DNA of 64,000 bases. Source: Escherichia coli (GTDB lineage: Bacteria > Pseudomonadota > Gammaproteobacteria > Enterobacterales > Enterobacteriaceae). The notes under the pieces were generated by a model that did not search any database, was not told the DNA's origin, and saw nothing but the letters and a program-made list of their open reading frames with translations. Of this stretch, positions 2,804 to 25,858 are shown in pieces (position 1 is the first letter of the stretch; each line of letters starts with the position of its first letter). The position numbers and the translations under genes were made by a program. The stretch lies in the NCBI RefSeq assembly GCF_048403405.1, contig NZ_CP183129.1; one strand, given 5' to 3'.

Positions 2804-3673
2804 TCAAAACAAGTCGTTTAGCATAACCCCTACACCAACGCGGGTCTGGTTGAAGTTATAGTCGATGAGCGATTCGCCGTAACCGCTGTAAACCTGAGTA
2901 TAAAGGCGCACATGTTTGGTGATCGGGTAACTTAAGCCTAACTCCGCGCCGCCGTAGCCCGTGTTCCAGTTGTACTGTCCTTTCGCACTCAACACCGCAT
3001 CACCGAGGTGATAGCCAATTTTAAGCTGGTAGTAACCCATATATTTGGTGATATCCGGGTTATCGTCAGTATTACCCACCACATACCACGGCTTCACCTC
3101 TACCAGCCAGTTACCGTTTTCTGCCATCAGGCGGGTATAAAGGCGGTTCCAGCTACGGGAGGTCGGGTCTGAACGCCCGTTAGAGTCGTGGTTATACCCC
3201 ATCTCCACATCGCGCAGCGTCCAACCTGCAAAACGGTAATCGGTAGCAAAACCGAGGAACAATTGCGGTTCGTAGTTGGTTTCACGAAACGGTGAAGACT
3301 CTTCGCTATTGGACAGTTGCCACCAGGATTTTTGCGTATAAGACGCACCCAATACCGAGTTCGGGCCTAAAATCCCACGCCACAGCGGAAATGCCAGGCT
3401 CAACTGAAACTTTACTTCATCCTTACGCGCATTTTCCGCCCAGTCGTAACTGGCAATCGCTTCTTTATTCAGATCGCTGGTTTGGGTATAGATGATGTAG
3501 TTGGTGTCATAAGGATAAAGGGTGAACGGATTGTCATGCTCCTGCAGCATATTGGCGATAATACTGCCACGCACCGCTGGCGCGTCATGCACCTCTTTCA
3601 CCGTTGCCTCTTGTGCATATACTGCCATAGGCAACATAAACACCGGCAACAACCAGCCCTGCAGAGTCCGCAT
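2804..3673 (-). CDS. pldA: Outer-membrane phospholipase A (OMPLA)
   Basis: 289-aa ORF with signal peptide MRTLQGWLLPVFMLPMAVYA; matches PldA as recalled. Confidence 0.93.
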   Translation of the reverse strand: MRTLQGWLLPVFMLPMAVYAQEATVKEVHDAPAVRGSIIANMLQEHDNPFTLYPYDTNYIIYTQTSDLNKEAIASYDWAENARKDEVKFQLSLAFPLWRGILGPNSVLGASYTQKSWWQLSNSEESSPFRETNYEPQLFLGFATDYRFAGWTLRDVEMGYNHDSNGRSDPTSRSWNRLYTRLMAENGNWLVEVKPWYVVGNTDDNPDITKYMGYYQLKIGYHLGDAVLSAKGQYNWNTGYGGAELGLSYPITKHVRLYTQVYSGYGESLIDYNFNQTRVGVGVMLNDLF

Positions 3674-3837
3674 CGCTCGTGTTCTCCGTAACGAATTATT
3701 GATAAGGTGAATATTTTTCTGCGGGCTATTTTACATACTTAACTCCATAGCCGTTAGTTATCCCTTCCTAAAGTAGAAACCAACAACAAAGAAGCATAAA
3801 ATCAACATTTCATTAACTAATGAAGTGTAAGGATGAT

Positions 3838-4305
3838 ATGTCTGCCGTACTGACCGCTGAACAAGCCCTGAAATTAGTGGGTGAGATGTTTGTTTATCAC
3901 ATGCCATTTAACCGCGCATTGGGGATGGAACTGGAGCGTTACGAAAAAGAGTTCGCACAGCTGGCCTTTAAAAATCAGCCAATGATGGTGGGTAACTGGG
4001 CGCAAAGCATTTTGCACGGCGGGGTCATTGCGTCGGCGCTGGATGTCGCCGCAGGTCTGGTGTGCGTGGGAAGTACCTTAACCCGCCACGAAACCATCAG
4101 TGAAGATGAACTACGTCAGCGGCTATCGCGAATGGGGACCATTGATCTTCGCGTCGATTATCTGCGCCCAGGCAGAGGCGAGCGTTTTACTGCTACCAGT
4201 AGCCTGTTACGTGCAGGCAATAAAGTCGCCGTCGCCCGCGTTGAATTACACAATGAAGAACAGCTTTATATTGCCAGTGCTACAGCCACCTATATGGTAG
4301 GTTGA
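3838..4305 (+). CDS. yigI: Hotdog-fold acyl-CoA thioesterase YigI
   Basis: ORF 3820..4305; start chosen at [13 protein letters not shown] (155 aa) to match K-12 YigI. Confidence 0.85.
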
Positions 4306-4356
4306 TAACGTAAAAGCAGGTAAACTGCTGTTACCAATTAAAAATGAGTATTCCCG

Positions 4357-5247
4357 ATGGATGCAAAACAAACGCGGCAGGGCGTATTACTCGCTCTTGC
4401 CGCTTATTTTATTTGGGGTATTGCGCCAGCGTACTTCAAGCTAATTTACTACGTGCCCGCCGATGAGATCCTGACGCATCGCGTGATCTGGTCGTTTTTC
4501 TTTATGGTGGTGCTGATGAGCATCTGCCGCCAGTGGTCCTATTTAAAAACGCTGATTCAGACGCCACAGAAAATTTTTATGCTGGCAGTCTCTGCCGTGC
4601 TGATTGGTGGCAACTGGCTACTGTTTATCTGGGCGGTGAACAATCACCATATGCTGGAAGCGAGCCTTGGTTACTTTATTAACCCGCTGGTGAACATTGT
4701 GCTAGGGATGATTTTCCTCGGCGAGCGATTCCGCCGGATGCAATGGCTGGCGGTGATTCTGGCGATATGTGGCGTGTTGGTTCAGTTGTGGACTTTTGGT
4801 TCACTACCGATTATCGCGCTGGGGCTGGCGTTTAGTTTTGCCTTCTACGGCCTGGTACGCAAGAAGATTGCTGTTGAAGCGCAAACCGGCATGTTAATCG
4901 AAACTATGTGGTTGCTGCCCGTGGCGGCGATTTACCTGTTTGCTATTGCCGACAGCGCAACCAGCCATATGGGGCAAAACCCGATGTCACTGAATTTACT
5001 GCTGATCGCCGCCGGGATTGTCACTACCGTACCGCTGTTGTGTTTTACTGCGGCTGCGACACGCCTGCGTCTCTCAACGTTAGGCTTTTTTCAGTACATT
5101 GGCCCGACGCTGATGTTCCTGCTGGCTGTGACGTTTTATGGTGAAAAACCGGGTGCCGATAAGATGGTGACCTTCGCCTTTATTTGGGTGGCGCTGGCAA
5201 TTTTTGTGATGGATGCGATTTATACGCAGCGTAGAACGTCCAAATAA
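4357..5247 (+). CDS. rarD: EamA/DMT-family transporter RarD
   Basis: 296-aa polytopic membrane ORF; matches RarD; SD upstream. Confidence 0.92.
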   Translation: MDAKQTRQGVLLALAAYFIWGIAPAYFKLIYYVPADEILTHRVIWSFFFMVVLMSICRQWSYLKTLIQTPQKIFMLAVSAVLIGGNWLLFIWAVNNHHMLEASLGYFINPLVNIVLGMIFLGERFRRMQWLAVILAICGVLVQLWTFGSLPIIALGLAFSFAFYGLVRKKIAVEAQTGMLIETMWLLPVAAIYLFAIADSATSHMGQNPMSLNLLLIAAGIVTTVPLLCFTAAATRLRLSTLGFFQYIGPTLMFLLAVTFYGEKPGADKMVTFAFIWVALAIFVMDAIYTQRRTSK

Positions 5248-5557
5248 AAAATAAATATATTCTGAAAAAATATGCCGACTCTTGCATGAGAGTGGGCATA
5301 TTGCCATGCTGACAGGAGACTCACATAAGGAAAGGCAGAATTTCCAGACGTCGTTGTATATTTTCATTTGCTTTAATAAATTTCATTTTTAGTAAATTCA
5401 GCATTATGTTATTAGCGATGAGCAAGACCAATCATTAACCAAGTTCTCTTCAGAATGTAATGAAAAATGTGAAGTGCATTTCTTTTTTAAAATTTTTTTA
5501 GCCTATTATTTCTTATCAAATTAACATTGCCCTTAATTATAAGAAAGGAGAATATAA

Positions 5558-6406
5558 ATGAACAACATATTAGGCTCATCAATTAATATGCCCTGTACAC
5601 TTTTCGAAACTATTACTTTATTCGATGATTTTTCTGCTGATGATATGCAATATGGGGATATGGAAGAACAAGATTTTCTCTCACTCGGCTTAAGCGACAT
5701 CTCTGCAAAAGTTGATCCTTACCGCCTCATTAAATACCATTTTCCTGGGCCGAATTCTACTTATGGTGCTTTTAGTGTTCCAACTTCTGGAACAAAAATA
5801 TCACAAAGTGAATGTATTGATATTTTATTTGCAGAAATGAAAGATCTGGCAAAAATGTTTTCCTTTTTTGGACAATACAAAACACTCATCCAGGATCTGA
5901 TTGATCATTTTAGATATGGAAATGGCAACAGTTTCCATAGCCAGGAATTGAACTTATCTTTTCATGAACGAATAAAAAAATATGATTATAATAGCCCAAT
6001 ACGTGTAATCAAAGAATGTATCGAAAATGATATTTCTTCAACACCTACGATAGGATACCGGCCTCTTCTCCTACAAAAGATTAAGATCGAATTACTTTCA
6101 TCAAGACTAAATAAATTCAATGATTTTAAAGATAATTTTAATGGCCTGGGAATCAGCATTCATGATATCTCAGCTCAAAAAATATCTCTTTTAAGTTTTC
6201 AAAAATACGCTATAGGATGGAGTGCAACAATTCATTTTGTAGCACAGGACCACTTCGGTCTTGATGTAACTGATATCAAAAACAAGACTTACAGCAAATA
6301 TAGATTTTTTCGCATATGGTTCTTTTTACAACGGCATAAAGACTTTGCTTTCAAACCTTTTTTCACCAATTTTAACACTATCGAAAGAATCGAAAATTAT
6401 CTATGA
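5558..6406 (+). CDS. Hypothetical protein, 282 aa, AT-rich accessory gene (islet gene 1); no recognisable family
   Basis: Intact ORF with AAGGAG SD 8 nt upstream of ATG; very low GC relative to flanks; no TM or signal peptide evident; stop overlaps start of next ORF. Confidence 0.7.
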   Translation: MNNILGSSINMPCTLFETITLFDDFSADDMQYGDMEEQDFLSLGLSDISAKVDPYRLIKYHFPGPNSTYGAFSVPTSGTKISQSECIDILFAEMKDLAKMFSFFGQYKTLIQDLIDHFRYGNGNSFHSQELNLSFHERIKKYDYNSPIRVIKECIENDISSTPTIGYRPLLLQKIKIELLSSRLNKFNDFKDNFNGLGISIHDISAQKISLLSFQKYAIGWSATIHFVAQDHFGLDVTDIKNKTYSKYRFFRIWFFLQRHKDFAFKPFFTNFNTIERIENYL

Positions 6407-6894
6407 AAAACAAACTCCAGAAAATTATATTATGTTTATTTCTTCTATGCTGCATCTATAATTTATGGACATTGCGTCCTGTACAGATTTTGTATACATA
6501 CTCTGATGCTGGCAATTCAGTCTTTCTGGTCGTTGATCATCTGCCATGGACTGACAGCGATAAAATAAATTGGTATCTGAAGCATCAGAATGAAATTAAA
6601 AATCAACATCCCCTACCAGAAGGTAGTTGGCATACCTGGTATGTCATTGATATCGGTAATGGCTTCACTGACTATAAAAAATATATCGAAGGGCCGTATG
6701 AAGATCTCTACTGTTTCCCGACAATTAAGAGCAATGATAATTGCATCGTGAAAAATTACTTAATGGTTATTAATGAATACCCTTATCGTAACACTCATAT
6801 TGGTATTAACGATTTTACTGAGTATCAATTAACACAAGAAAATAAAATAGAGCGAGTTTTCAATCCGCATGACTTTAAAAAAGACAATTTTTAG
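6403..6894 (+). CDS. Hypothetical protein, 163 aa, N-terminal hydrophobic anchor or signal (islet gene 2)
   Basis: ATG overlaps upstream stop (ATGA at 6403-6406); N-terminus MKNKLQKIILCLFLLCCIYNLW is hydrophobic; AT-rich; followed by hairpin 6900-6930. Confidence 0.7.
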   Translation: MKNKLQKIILCLFLLCCIYNLWTLRPVQILYTYSDAGNSVFLVVDHLPWTDSDKINWYLKHQNEIKNQHPLPEGSWHTWYVIDIGNGFTDYKKYIEGPYEDLYCFPTIKSNDNCIVKNYLMVINEYPYRNTHIGINDFTEYQLTQENKIERVFNPHDFKKDNF

Positions 6895-6899
6895 AAATA

Positions 6900-6930
6900 A
6901 GCCGGATAAAAAAATAGCTTTATCCGGCAC
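6900..6930. terminator. Bidirectional intrinsic terminator hairpin between islet gene 2 and corA
   Basis: GCCGGATAAAAAAATAGCTTTATCCGGC inverted repeat between convergent ORFs. Confidence 0.55.
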
Positions 6931-6935
6931 TCATA

Positions 6936-7886
6936 TTACAACCAGTTCTTCCGCTTAAAATACAGATACGGTGCCAGGCCCGCGAGGATCATAAAGATAA
7001 TCGCGCCAGGGTAGCCGAAACTCCACTTCAGTTCCGGCATAAACTCAAAGTTCATCCCGTAGCTGGAAGCAACCAGCGTTGGCGGCAGGAACACGACGGA
7101 TACCACCGAGAAGATTTTGATGATGCGGTTCTGCTCGATGTTGATAAAGCCCATCGCCGCCTGCATCAGGAAGTTCACCTTCTGGAACAGGGATTCGTTA
7201 TGCGGCAGCAGGGATTCGATATCTCGCAGGATTTCACGCGCCTGCTCCAGTTGACCACCCGGTAAACGCGCCTTGCGTACCAGGAAGTTGAGCGCACGCT
7301 GGGTATCCATCAGACACAGGCGAACTTTCCAGCCGATATCTTCCAGTTCCGCCAGCGTGGAGAGCGCCTCGTCGTACTCATCGCCCTGATGCCCTTCCAT
7401 AATTACCCGGCTCAACTGCTCCAGGTCGCTGTAGATATTTTCAATTTCATCTGCCAACTGTTCGATTTTGGTTTCGAACAGATCCAGCAGCAGCTCGTAG
7501 GCATTACCGTCTACCATCGACTGGCTACGGGCACGCATACGATATAGACGAAAAGCGGGCAGTTCACGCTCACGCAGAGTAAACAGACGACCATCACGGA
7601 TGGTAAATGCCACAGTGGAGTTACCGGCGTGATCTTCCGCATCTTCAAAGAAGAAGAAGGAGTGAATATGCAGGCCGTCATCGTCTTCAAAGAAACGTGC
7701 CGATGCTTCGATGTCTTCCAGTTCCGGGCGGGTTGCCAGGCTCTGGCCAAGTTCAGATTGTACGCGCAGTCGCTCGTCGTCGTCCGGTTCGACAAGATCA
7801 ATCCATACTGCATTTACAAGGGGTTGTGACTCTTCGACTTCCAGCCGGGTCAGTCGGTTATTTTCCAGTTGAAATGCGCTCAGCAT
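6936..7886 (-). CDS. corA: Magnesium/cobalt transport protein CorA
   Basis: ORF 6936..7901; start at [10 protein letters not shown] (316 aa); C-terminal [10 protein letters not shown] motif present. Confidence 0.93.
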
Positions 7887-8010
7887 GACCGGGACTCCCA
7901 ATGCTTAAAATATCGGACAGTTCGGTGGGCACACAGAAACAAATTGGGTTTCAGACCATTAAACAGCCTGACTCAGCGCGACGGGAAAAATTGAGGTCGC
8001 TGACAACCGC

Positions 8011-8043
8011 TAAGGCTATCAGCAAAAAGGGATAGCCTTAGGA
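8011..8043. promoter_or_regulatory. Stable hairpin in corA upstream/leader region
   Basis: Inverted repeat CTAAGGCTATC..(loop)..GATAGCCTTAG inside the 354-bp corA-yigE divergent region. Confidence 0.35.
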
Positions 8044-8255
8044 GTTGATCCTGGATGACAGGATAGTGAGCCAGTATCTACTGGGTGTGTCCAAGGCGAA
8101 TGTCCTCTTAGAGTGATCGTGCGCGCATGTTACGCCAGCAAAATTTTGCCGTCAACACGCAACAGAACACCACAGAACAATAGTTGAACTTCGCGCTTTT
8201 TGGTACTCGTCAAGGTCGCTAACAGGATAAAAAAATCCCACATCCAGGACCTATA

Positions 8256-9020
8256 ATGGCGCATCGGCTACTCATTGGTAAAGGAATGATCACCTTGAAT
8301 CTCAAACGGATTTTTCTCACCCTCACCTTACTTCCCTTGTTTGCTGTTGCCGCTGATGATTGCGCACTCTCAGATCCGGCGCTGACCGTACAGGCGTATA
8401 TCGTTAATCCTCAAACAGAGCGGGTGAAAATGTACTGGCAAAAAGCCAATGGCGAAGCGTGGGGAACGTTACATGCTCTGCTGGCGGATATTAATAGTCA
8501 GGGTCAGGTGCAGATGGCGATGAACGGCGGCATCTATGATGAAAGCTATGCGCCGCTCGGTTTGTACATCGAAAACGGTCAGCAGAAGGTGGCGTTAAAT
8601 CTCGCTTCAGGTGAAGGGAATTTCTTTATTCGTCCTGGCGGCGTGTTTTATGTCGCGGGAGATAAAGTCGGCATCGTTCGTCTGGATGCCTTTAAAACCA
8701 GTAAAGAGATTCAGTTTGCGGTGCAGTCAGGGCCAATGTTGATGGAAAACGGCGTAATTAATCCGCGTATTCATCCCAACGTCGCCTCACGTAAAATTCG
8801 TAACGGTGTTGGGATTAATAAACAAGGGAACGCCGTGTTTTTGTTGAGCCAGCAGGCGACAAATTTTTATGATTTTGCCTGTTATGCCAAAGCGAAACTG
8901 AACGTTGAGCAGCTGCTTTATCTTGATGGCACAATTTCACATATGTATATGAAAGGCTGGGCAATCCCGTGGCAACGCTATCCTTTTGTTACCATGATTT
9001 CCGTCGAGCGGAAAGGTTAA
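8256..9020 (+). CDS. yigE: DUF2233-family (phosphodiester glycosidase-like) secreted protein YigE
   Basis: 254-aa ORF; hydrophobic signal-like N-terminus (LTLTLLPLFAVAADD); matches YigE as recalled. Confidence 0.8.
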   Translation: MAHRLLIGKGMITLNLKRIFLTLTLLPLFAVAADDCALSDPALTVQAYIVNPQTERVKMYWQKANGEAWGTLHALLADINSQGQVQMAMNGGIYDESYAPLGLYIENGQQKVALNLASGEGNFFIRPGGVFYVAGDKVGIVRLDAFKTSKEIQFAVQSGPMLMENGVINPRIHPNVASRKIRNGVGINKQGNAVFLLSQQATNFYDFACYAKAKLNVEQLLYLDGTISHMYMKGWAIPWQRYPFVTMISVERKG

Positions 9021-23535: not shown

Positions 23536-23607
23536 CCGGAGGCAAGCACCTCCGGGACCTTTCTGATACATAAAAAAACGCCTGCTCTTATTACGGAGCA
23601 GGCGTTA
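23536..23607 (+). terminator. Tandem hairpins downstream of hemY (hem operon terminator)
   Basis: CCGGAGGCAAGCACCTCCGG and AAACGCCTGCTC..GAGCAGGCGTT inverted repeats. Confidence 0.5.
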
Positions 23608-24202
23608 AAACAGGTCTGTATGACAACAAGTGGGTGCTTCACTCAACGTTGTGTCCATGGTGTCTGATGAGGCATAAGCGACATCTGTCAGTGGACGATA
23701 AGCACCGTAAACGGCTCTGCGTCATTCCGGAGTTTATGAGGCACTAAGGCGAACATAAGAGATGGAATGAGCATCTACTCGTTTATTATGCCACAGAGAA
23801 CCGGGAAATAACATCCCTTAACACTTTTTATGAGATAATTCTGTAATCCTCTTTGCTTCCTGAGTAATAACTTCCTGAGTGAATATTTCTCCTGCGCACG
23901 ATTCTACACATATATATAATGAATAATAAAAGTCATTCAATTAATAACATATATATTAATTGCCGTTAAAACTAAAAACAGCATCAATAATCAACGCGAT
24001 ATAACATCACCGCCTTACATATCACCTGCGCCAGAGGTAGGATTGAAAACGCTCTCCTGATTTTCCAATTCATTATCTGGATAAATAAATAATTTATTTT
24101 CATCACTATTATTTATGCAATCATCCTGTCAGGGAGAGGGATCTCAATTATCAATGCTTAATTACGTCAACATTTTGACGACATGAAACCGGAGCATTTT
24201 GC

Positions 24203-25858
24203 ATGGAATTTTCGTTTTCACCCAAACTTCTTGTTGTGGCTGTCGCCGCCGCTCTTCCACTCATGGCCAACGCAGCAGATACCCCGTCAACCGCCACCGC
24301 ACGCAAAGGCTTTGCCGGATACGATCACCCAAACCAGTATCTGGTTAAACCGGCGACCACTATTGCCGACAACATGATGCCGGTGATGCAGCATCCTGCA
24401 CAAGACAAAGAAACCCAGCAGAAGCTGGCAGAACTTGAGAAAAAAACCGGTAAGAAACCGAACGTGGTTGTTTTCTTGCTGGATGATGTGGGCTGGATGG
24501 ATGTTGGCTTTAACGGCGGCGGCGTGGCGGTGGGTAATCCTACACCAGATATCGACGCCGTTGCCAGCCAGGGGCTGATTTTAACTTCGGCGTATTCTCA
24601 ACCGAGTTCTTCCCCAACCCGCGCCACGATTCTTACCGGACAATACTCCATCCACCACGGCATTCTGATGCCGCCAATGTACGGGCAACCGGGCGGTCTG
24701 CAAGGGTTAACCACTCTGCCGCAGTTGCTGCACGATCAGGGCTACGTCACTCAGGCCATCGGGAAATGGCATATGGGGGAAAACAAAGAGTCGCAGCCGC
24801 AGAACGTTGGCTTTGATGATTTCCGCGGCTTTAACTCGGTATCCGATATGTATACCGAATGGCGTGATGTTCACGTCAACCCGGAAGTCGCCCTGAGCCC
24901 GGATCGTTCTGAATACATCCAAAAACTGCCGTTCAGCAAAGATGACGTTCATGCCGTGCGCGGCGGTGAACAGGAAGCCATTGCCGACATTACGCCGAAA
25001 TATATGGAAGACCTGGATCAACGCTGGATGGAATATGGCGTTAAGTTCCTCGACAAGATGGCGAAGAGCGATAAGCCTTTCTTCCTCTACTACGGCACTC
25101 GCGGCTGTCACTTCGATAACTACCCAAATGCGAAATATGCGGGTAGCTCTCCGGCGCGCACCTCTTACGGCGACTGCATGGTGGAGATGAACGATATCTT
25201 CGCCAATCTGTATAAAGCACTGGAGAAAAACGGTCAGCTTGATAACACGCTGATTGTGTTCACCTCTGATAACGGTCCGGAAGCCGAAGTTCCGCCACAC
25301 GGTCGCACGCCGTTCCGCGGTGCGAAAGGTTCTACATGGGAAGGCGGCGTTCGTGTGCCAACCTTCGTTTACTGGAAAGGCATGATCCAACCGCGTAAAT
25401 CTGACGGCATTGTCGATCTGGCGGATCTCTTCCCTACGGCGCTGGATCTGGCGGGGCATCCTGGGGCGAAAGTAGCGAATTTAGTACCGAAAACCACCTT
25501 TATCGATGGTGTGGACCAGACATCTTTCTTCCTGGGAACAAATGGTCAGTCTAACCGTAAGGCCGAGCACTACTTCCTCAACGGTAAACTTTCTGCTGTG
25601 CGTATGGATGAGTTCAAGTATCACGTCCTGATCCAGCAACCGTACGCGTATACCCAGAGCGGGTATCAGGGTGGATTCACCGGCACAGTAATGCAAACGG
25701 CGGGATCGTCGGTGTTTAACCTGTACACCGATCCGCAGGAAAGCGACTCCATCGGCGTGCGCCATATCCCAATGGGTGTACCGCTACAGACCGAAATGCA
25801 CGCGTATATGGAGATCCTGAAAAAATATCCACCACGCGCGCAGATTAAATCTGATTAA
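24203..25858 (+). CDS. aslA: Arylsulfatase AslA
   Basis: 551-aa ORF with signal peptide; sulfatase region ([11 protein letters not shown]: Cys-x-Pro-x-Arg). Confidence 0.92.

Follow-up and report, generated by a model that had tools for sequence, protein, structure and literature searches.

The DNA that separates rarD from a two-gene islet in the E. coli chromosome analyzed here raises the question of whether this short, AT-rich stretch contains the promoter of the islet and, if so, whether H-NS keeps that promoter silent. The window, by which we mean the entire 64-kb stretch of E. coli chromosomal DNA that was analyzed, is 100% identical to strain TUM14771 over positions 4900-7100. The local gene order is rhtC, recQ, pldA, yigI, rarD, a 310-bp gap (positions 5248-5557), a gene encoding a 282-aa protein, a gene encoding a 163-aa protein, and corA, with the last of these on the minus strand (Table 1). 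A sequence-only reading had described the gap as a likely H-NS-silenced promoter, and such a reading is plausible. The explanation that we favor, at a probability of roughly 0.55, is that the gap is a mosaic with a conserved sigma-70 promoter that is predicted to initiate transcription near position 5516, and that an expected coating of H-NS would hold expression at a low level.

Table 1. Features of the rarD-corA interval and their positions in the 64-kb window.
Feature	Position	Strand	Basis or remark
rarD	4357-5247	+	296-aa open reading frame; Annotated in NZ_CP128875, a record with 100% identity, as the EamA family transporter RarD
Backbone spacer in common with the K-12 rarD-yigG intergenic region	5248-5331		Pairwise alignment; not islet DNA
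Hairpin AAUAUGCC.GACUCU-UGCA-AGAGU.GGGCAUAUU	5269-5302		Centroid energy of -20 kcal/mol
yigG remnant, codons 10-30, without start codon	5331-5393	+	DNA alignment and tblastn
Continuous tract of ~32% GC (yigG remnant and cassette), 1.6 kb; predicted H-NS-coated domain	5334-6935		Composition
Native 5' regulatory region of the cassette (promoter and leader)	5392-5557	+	Long-haplotype identity; alignment with other genera
Conserved TGTGA; candidate activator half-site	5468-5472	+	Spans -48 to -44, counted from the predicted start
T6-A4-T7 tract	5483-5499	+	T7 (5493-5499) at -23 to -17, followed by AGCC and then the hexamer
Predicted sigma-70 -10 hexamer TATTAT	5504-5509	+	Alignment columns T50, A51, and T55 invariant in 9 lineages
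Predicted transcription start	5516 (within 2 nt)	+	From the position of the -10; leader of about 42 nt
Leader motif TTAATTATAA, the E. coli version of TTGATTATTAA	5533-5542	+	Comparison with other genera
Shine-Dalgarno AAGGAG	5545-5550	+	7 nt before the ATG at 5558; purine-rich block aligned in all lineages
DUF3289 / YPO3983-family gene, putative colicin-M-like type VI effector	5558-6406	+	282 aa; PF11692, TIGR03034, PMC11148199
DUF943 gene, putative cognate immunity protein	6403-6894	+	163 aa; PF06092, PMC11148199
corA terminator, specific to the cassette haplotype	6901-6928	-	Terminator scan; sequence unlike the K-12 corA terminator
corA	From 6936 (stop codon at 6936)	-	Right neighbor of the cassette

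The islet at positions 5558-6894 is, as judged from domain matches and gene order, a putative effector-immunity cassette of the DUF3289-DUF943 type. The product of the first gene matched Pfam family PF11692 (E = 3e-82) and TIGR03034 (E = 7e-120), and the product of the second matched PF06092 (E = 2e-26) and contains a single N-terminal hydrophobic segment. Genes for both Pfam domains are thus direct neighbors on the same strand, with the DUF943 open reading frame overlapping the effector stop codon by 4 nt. In a study published in 2024, a DUF3289 protein was toxic in the periplasm of E. coli and caused cells to become round (PMC11148199; also PMC12469244); this protein has a structural likeness to colicin M and was neutralized by its DUF943 partner (PMC11148199). 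The two were proposed to act as effector and immunity protein of a type VI system, although the authors of that study state that secretion is still to be demonstrated (PMC11148199). The cassette described here is an orphan pair, with no type VI cluster nearby in the window.

The taxonomic distribution of the cassette was evaluated in 5426 complete E. coli genomes, among which about 2360 (~44%) carry it in place of yigG-yigF; most of the others carry yigG-yigF. The presence of the cassette therefore varies among strains, as is characteristic of accessory DNA. The form identified in the window, as recognized by its exact junction, was detected in 930 genomes, ATCC 25922 among them, while a longer form was detected in 1433 genomes that include O157:H7 Sakai (DUF3289 and DUF943 encoded by ECs4747 and ECs_5766, respectively). 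The K-12 form, in which yigG-yigF lies between rarD and corA, accounts for about 2290 genomes, a figure obtained by subtracting the 930 window-form genomes from the 3220 genomes with the rarD-proximal spacer. Between rarD and the cassette, the long form contains, in this order, a minus-strand gene of 99 aa, ~630 bp of DNA at 30% GC, and 147 bp derived from the 3' end of corA. No relationship was found between the left part of this long haplotype and yigG-yigF, and comparison of YigG, YigF, the 99-aa protein, and DUF943 revealed no mutual similarity.

The 147-bp corA fragment of the long form (positions 1818-1964 of locus L002), which is missing from the window, is 93% identical to the resident corA end and resembles a scar that an insertion or duplication left where corA ends. 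When the two E. coli cassettes themselves were compared (window positions 5558-6894 versus 2151-3487 of L002), the effector genes were 90.0% identical (92.9, 92.2, and 84.8% at codon positions 1, 2, and 3, respectively) and the immunity genes were 99.8% identical. This disparity could reflect either a breakpoint of recombination within the cassette or an effector that is diversifying against a fixed immunity gene.

The gene order rarD-DUF3289-DUF943-corA was also identified in Salmonella enterica subsp. diarizonae, salamae, and arizonae, in another S. enterica record, and in one metagenomic contig (rarD-corA order conserved in loci L010, L014, L015, L016, and L019). Further genomes that encode the Salmonella cassette protein or its near relatives are named subsp. 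houtenae. Since the same locus is occupied in Salmonella subspecies, the cassette is an old occupant of the rarD-corA slot rather than a recent arrival. The sequence-only reading had treated the pair as a horizontally acquired islet, which is too simple a description of DNA that is located between rarD and corA in S. enterica subsp. salamae, arizonae, diarizonae, and houtenae as well. In the type strain of diarizonae, the effector gene is broken into two open reading frames (2995-3489 and 3513-3845) and, judging from this, may be a pseudogene. Two contigs labeled 'uncultured Alistipes sp.' (L006) and 'uncultured Clostridium sp.' (L007) carry the cassette of the E. coli long haplotype together with the corA fragment, and these are probably mis-binned Escherichia DNA.

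Alignment of the 310-bp gap with the K-12 locus and with the long haplotype reveals that it is a mosaic of three parts, namely a backbone spacer, a remnant of yigG, and upstream DNA that belongs to the cassette. Positions 5200-5331, which span the end of rarD and the spacer and include a hairpin, have 3 mismatches to the corresponding K-12 segment (L001, 801-932), with a 62-base match to a spacer segment present in K-12-type genomes. The adjoining positions 5334-5390 are 94% identical to K-12 yigG (L001, 973-1029), and tblastn placed YigG residues 10-30 at window positions 5331-5393 (E = 1.4e-5); a deletion of about 38 bp took out the yigG ATG and the first codons. The remaining DNA, at positions 5392-5557, is 84.6% identical to the long haplotype (L002, 1982-2150) and can also be aligned with the regions that precede homologs in other genera. 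At the right junction, K-12 homology picks up exactly at the corA stop codon. The gap had been treated as a single 310-bp unit, a view that these alignments overturn, given that its left 46% (143 bp) is backbone and gene remnant rather than islet DNA and only the segment from 5392 onward belongs to the cassette. The yigG fragment would have been left behind when the toxin-immunity cassette displaced most of yigG-yigF.

The gap is non-coding throughout its 310 bp, with stop codons in every frame. Seven open reading frames of 31-95 aa that overlap it were considered as small genes and set aside, none having a convincing context. Rfam scans (positions 4000-8500 at E values up to 1 and the whole window at gathering scores) identified no RNA family in the region.

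A hairpin downstream of rarD had been noted in the sequence-only reading, and its presence was verified by folding. A 91-nt plus-strand segment that contains it yielded a z-score of -3.35, and none of 200 shuffled sequences was as stable. The tail of the hairpin reads AUAUUGCC on the plus strand and UUUUUUCAG on the minus strand, such that U6 follows on the minus strand only. The combination of a stable hairpin and a U-tract that defines an intrinsic terminator is thus incomplete on the rarD strand, and a consensus terminator scan made no call at the hairpin. It is probably a weak terminator for rarD that works better for antisense transcripts, and its main role may be to stop antisense transcripts that leave the AT-rich block.

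With respect to base composition, the gap is as extreme as had been claimed, with a GC content of 29.7% that is equaled by just 0.13% of the 310-bp windows in the 64 kb. Low GC content is not confined to the intergenic part; it is ~32% throughout positions 5326-6935, versus 51-53% in the flanks. AT richness that so exceeds the genomic average, sustained for several hundred bp or more, is typical of H-NS-silenced DNA. Elsewhere in the window, segments with a GC content of 36% or less were limited to positions 23681-24240, which adjoin the GlmZ sRNA gene (23572-23778, minus strand), and 59651-59980, which overlap an Rfam match to 'Rev39 5' UTR' (59455-59744, minus strand) in a divergent intergenic region.

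Both A/T-rich strings quoted in the sequence-only reading are present, with AAATAAAAAATAAATATATT at 5243-5262, where it overlaps the rarD stop codon (5245-5247), and TTTTTTAAAATTTTTTTAGCCTATTATTTC at 5483-5512, ahead of the start of the next gene. The descriptions 'tract-rich' and 'curved', however, were not upheld. The numbers of bases in A/T runs of at least 4, 5, and 6 were 41, 29, and 19 in the 310-bp region and 40.6, 19.7, and 9.1 in dinucleotide shuffles of it (p = 0.50, 0.16, and 0.10, respectively), indicating no excess over composition in positions 5248-5557; the cassette coding sequence had similar means of 45, 21, and 10 bases. Likewise, the Bolshoy-Trifonov wedge model, which as applied here yields approximate figures, predicted no unusual curvature; relative to the window, the region ranked at the 50th percentile in mean curvature and at the 91st in peak curvature.

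The location of the gap directly upstream of a variable two-gene cassette is as first described, and the suggestion that a promoter resides there is well supported by comparison across genera. We compared the regions upstream of homologs with 49-64% protein identity from Salmonella, Enterobacter (two loci), Huaxiibacter, Trabulsiella, Lelliottia, and a metagenome, which together with two Escherichia sequences comprised nine lineages in a MAFFT alignment. Very few columns of this alignment were invariant, and these comprised T.TGA (5468-5472), two T of a T-run (5484-5485), T at 5499, and T, A, and T at 5504, 5505, and 5509. The last three are the -12T, -11A, and -7T of the -10 hexamer TATTAT, the bases expected at the diagnostic positions of such an element, and their invariance across genera indicates that the region almost certainly contains the cassette promoter. 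This hexamer scored 6.5 bits in a position weight matrix (PWM) scan and is associated with a weak -35 and an upstream tract with 7 of 7 bases A or T. With the -12 at 5504, the start of transcription is predicted to be near 5516.

Additional elements flank the predicted -10. In 10 of the 13 upstream regions, the TGTGA motif precedes the annotated start by 86-101 nt, and all lineages have 36-37 nt between this motif and the hexamer. Within the leader, the 11-nt motif TTGATTATTAA is identical in eight non-Escherichia loci (L008-L011, L014, and L016-L018), where it lies at about +16 to +26 and 66-68 nt after TGTGA. With respect to leader RNA structure, folding of the single sequence was no better than that of shuffled sequences (z = -0.58), and RNAalifold detected no conserved pairs in the leader among the nine lineages. 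The TATTAA within the leader motif was considered as an alternative -10 and rejected, since it ends in A and its use would result in hardly any leader. A comparison by eye with consensus sequences revealed no convincing or conserved sites of the Fur, ArcA, PhoP, or MarA type.

The architecture of TGTGA, -10, and leader is not tied to rarD. In Huaxiibacter, Trabulsiella guamensis, and Lelliottia, the upstream neighbor is a divergent fadH-like gene, and one Enterobacter cassette follows the immunity gene of another such pair. The retention of the same architecture where the neighbor is not rarD argues that the promoter is autonomous. Several observations nevertheless count against the promoter proposed here. 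A consensus promoter scan identified no plus-strand promoter in positions 5248-5557, and the PWM scan identified several weak candidates of comparable score on both strands, although this is expected since the DNA is so AT-rich. Moreover, the upstream region is 84.6% identical between the E. coli haplotypes, which is close to the 84.8% identity at third codon positions of the effector gene and hence provides no overall sign of constraint within E. coli. The top raw PWM score was that of a minus-strand site (TTGTTC-18-TATAAT, with the -10 at 5541-5536 and the -35 at 5565-5560) that is not conserved outside E. coli; a leftward transcript from this site would meet the hairpin and U6 at 5302-5263.

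We propose that transcription of the pair would begin from a sigma-70 promoter that comprises TATTAT and is devoid of a usable -35, with T7 predicted to substitute for the -35 and TGTGA as a possible binding site for an activator. In AT-tract promoters (Warman et al. 2020, PMC7229825), an element located at -17 to -23, 5 bp upstream of the -10, activates a -10 without a -35 through sigma-70 residue R451. The cassette promoter resembles these in its good -10, its lack of a -35, and a T7 tract (5493-5499) that consists of A/T bases only and is positioned exactly at -23 to -17. One of the A/T runs noted in the sequence-only reading thus probably has a direct promoter role. The cassette promoter differs in that the T7 tract, present in both E. 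coli haplotypes, is absent from other genera and hence specific to E. coli. Furthermore, the AT-tract promoters of PMC7229825 are spurious and mostly intragenic, whereas that of the cassette is intergenic, precedes a gene with a Shine-Dalgarno sequence, and has a -10 that is kept across genera.

The lack of a usable -35 also fits an activator-dependent promoter of the class II CRP-like type, in which TGTGA would be the strong half of a site centered near -41.5, a physiological signal would turn the cassette on, and the activator would also counter H-NS. TGTGA with an A-rich 5' flank was observed in 8 of the 9 aligned lineages (Lelliottia has TTTGA), the T-run that follows it fits the TTT flank of the 22-bp CRP consensus, and the interval of 36-37 nt from its T to the first base of the -10 is the geometry of a site centered at -41.5. 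In addition, CRP targets another type VI-associated gene in EAEC 042 at TGTGAGCCGCATCACA (PMC12360894). The cassette promoter shares a perfect TGTGA, an A-rich flank, and the absence of a -35 hexamer with class II CRP-dependent promoters, and the placement of its TGTGA would suit a site centered at -41.5, but it differs from these in that the second half-site is missing or degenerate. Relative to the two halves of TGTGA-N6-TCACA, the left half is perfect and the right half in E. coli is TTTCT (2/5), while the right halves across the alignment are poor and variable (TTTCT, CTTCT, ACTGT, CTCCG, GCCAC, GCGTG, ACCTG, and GCGCA versus TCACA). The ChIP-validated sites of PMC12360894, in contrast, mostly have two recognizable halves, and the -41.5 centering, while compatible with the predicted -10, depends on a start site that is itself predicted. 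We consider a CRP-like mode of control unlikely, although it is the strongest of the alternatives to the promoter and H-NS model favored here.

The indirect evidence for the H-NS component of the favored model is good and includes a comparison with the allele that occupies the same slot in K-12. There, yigG-yigF is a promoter island that is H-NS-bound 'according to all studies' (PMC3661553, Table 1), yigF-yigG-rarD is a small silenced extended protein occupancy domain (EPOD) (PMC8282354, Fig 7C), and an H-NS-repressed, AT-tract-dependent promoter resides inside yigG (PMC7229825). The K-12 island and the cassette tract are alike in their location between rarD and corA, in their GC content (34% there and 32% here), in 143 bp of orthologous DNA, and in the density of promoter-like sites on both strands. 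The orthologous DNA (window positions 5248-5390) corresponds to the rarD-proximal edge of the H-NS-bound domain of K-12. However, the DNA to the right of 5391 is cassette DNA that is unrelated to the K-12 island, and H-NS binding was measured for the K-12 allele only. The cassette tract is longer than the AT-rich allele of K-12, and its length of 1.6 kb is close to the mean of 1643 bp for H-NS-bound regions in O157 Sakai (PMC4764244).

Matches resembling the H-NS motif TCGATAAATT occur at a density of 6.5 per kb over positions 5248-6935 versus 1.0 per kb elsewhere, a difference that base composition by itself would produce. In the 310-bp gap, there is one match at 8 of 10 positions (TTAATAAATT at 5373), and it lies within the yigG remnant. 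H-NS also silences type VI genes (PMC10899749), and these resemble the cassette in being AT-rich, type VI-associated, and located in an enterobacterial genome; they differ in that the cassette is an orphan, with no type VI cluster of the window in its vicinity. We consider it likely that H-NS occupies the cassette tract, and a meaningful repression of the cassette promoter by H-NS is probable as well, if somewhat less so. H-NS would coat the tract around the promoter and result in low expression in ordinary laboratory culture. Complete silence, which the sequence-only reading had entertained, is less likely than low expression because an immunity gene usually needs some expression.

Published data on H-NS come from strains with the alternative allele. 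The strains with H-NS or CRP ChIP-seq data that we checked (K-12, EAEC 042, and ETEC H10407) all have yigG-yigF, and the data from EAEC 042 and ETEC H10407 are therefore uninformative for the cassette. Our survey of the literature yielded no ChIP, start-site, or expression results for the cassette in any strain. Full-text searches by locus tag (ECs4747, ECs4748, and the guessed EDL933 tags Z5337-Z5339) returned nothing on the cassette, and the locus is not listed in the supplements of PMC4720273 and PMC4764244.

Whether H-NS matters at all to the cassette is the point on which a further alternative differs, in that the -10 and the AT-tract would drive steady, low transcription with H-NS unbound or irrelevant. 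Protection against sister cells requires that immunity genes be expressed, AT-tract promoters need no additional factors for constitutive activity (PMC7229825), and the core is conserved across genera in which the upstream GC content is only 39-46% and which are thus not obvious H-NS targets. The E. coli version, in contrast, has a GC content of 24-29% and lies within 1.6 kb of DNA at 32% GC, the K-12 allele, which has the same composition, is both occupied by H-NS and silent, and H-NS-repressed promoters of exactly the same type are documented within yigG. An unsilenced promoter is accordingly improbable in our estimation, a little more so than control by a CRP-like activator. Finally, the idea that the cassette of the window haplotype is without a promoter of its own and is transcribed by read-through from rarD, with the AT-rich DNA a mere spacer, gains something from the lack of a sense-strand U-tract after the rarD hairpin (tail AUAUUGCC), from the silence of the terminator scan there, and from the location of rarD and both cassette genes on the same strand, but it is very improbable given that TGTGA, -10, and leader are kept upstream of homologs that lie behind a divergent fadH-like gene or another immunity gene, that rarD and the effector gene are separated by 310 non-coding bp in which every frame is interrupted by stop codons, and that the long haplotype has 1.3 kb and an opposite-strand gene between rarD and the cassette.

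Under the favored model, the finding is largely ordinary, and the general understanding of H-NS would be unchanged even if the model were confirmed. Confirmation would, however, provide a defined promoter and a simple regulatory model, in which H-NS silencing is superimposed on a core promoter that is old and conserved, for an orphan toxin-immunity pair that is widespread, being carried by roughly four in ten of the E. coli sequenced (O157:H7 and B2 strains among them). The analysis also documents that yigG-yigF and the cassette have long been exchanged for one another in the rarD-corA gap, which is useful in strain typing and helps in interpreting K-12 H-NS data in other strains. Only tentatively can it be suggested that the orphan DUF3289-DUF943 modules of Enterobacteriaceae share an unnamed regulatory system, consisting of a TGTGA activator site and TTGATTATTAA, that has drifted AT-rich in E. 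coli with the addition of an H-NS layer that the activator must overcome. In an Enterobacter contig (L017, positions 1-2819), two DUF3289-DUF943 pairs are arranged in tandem, and the second pair has its own TGTGA/-10/leader architecture within a 171-bp gap.
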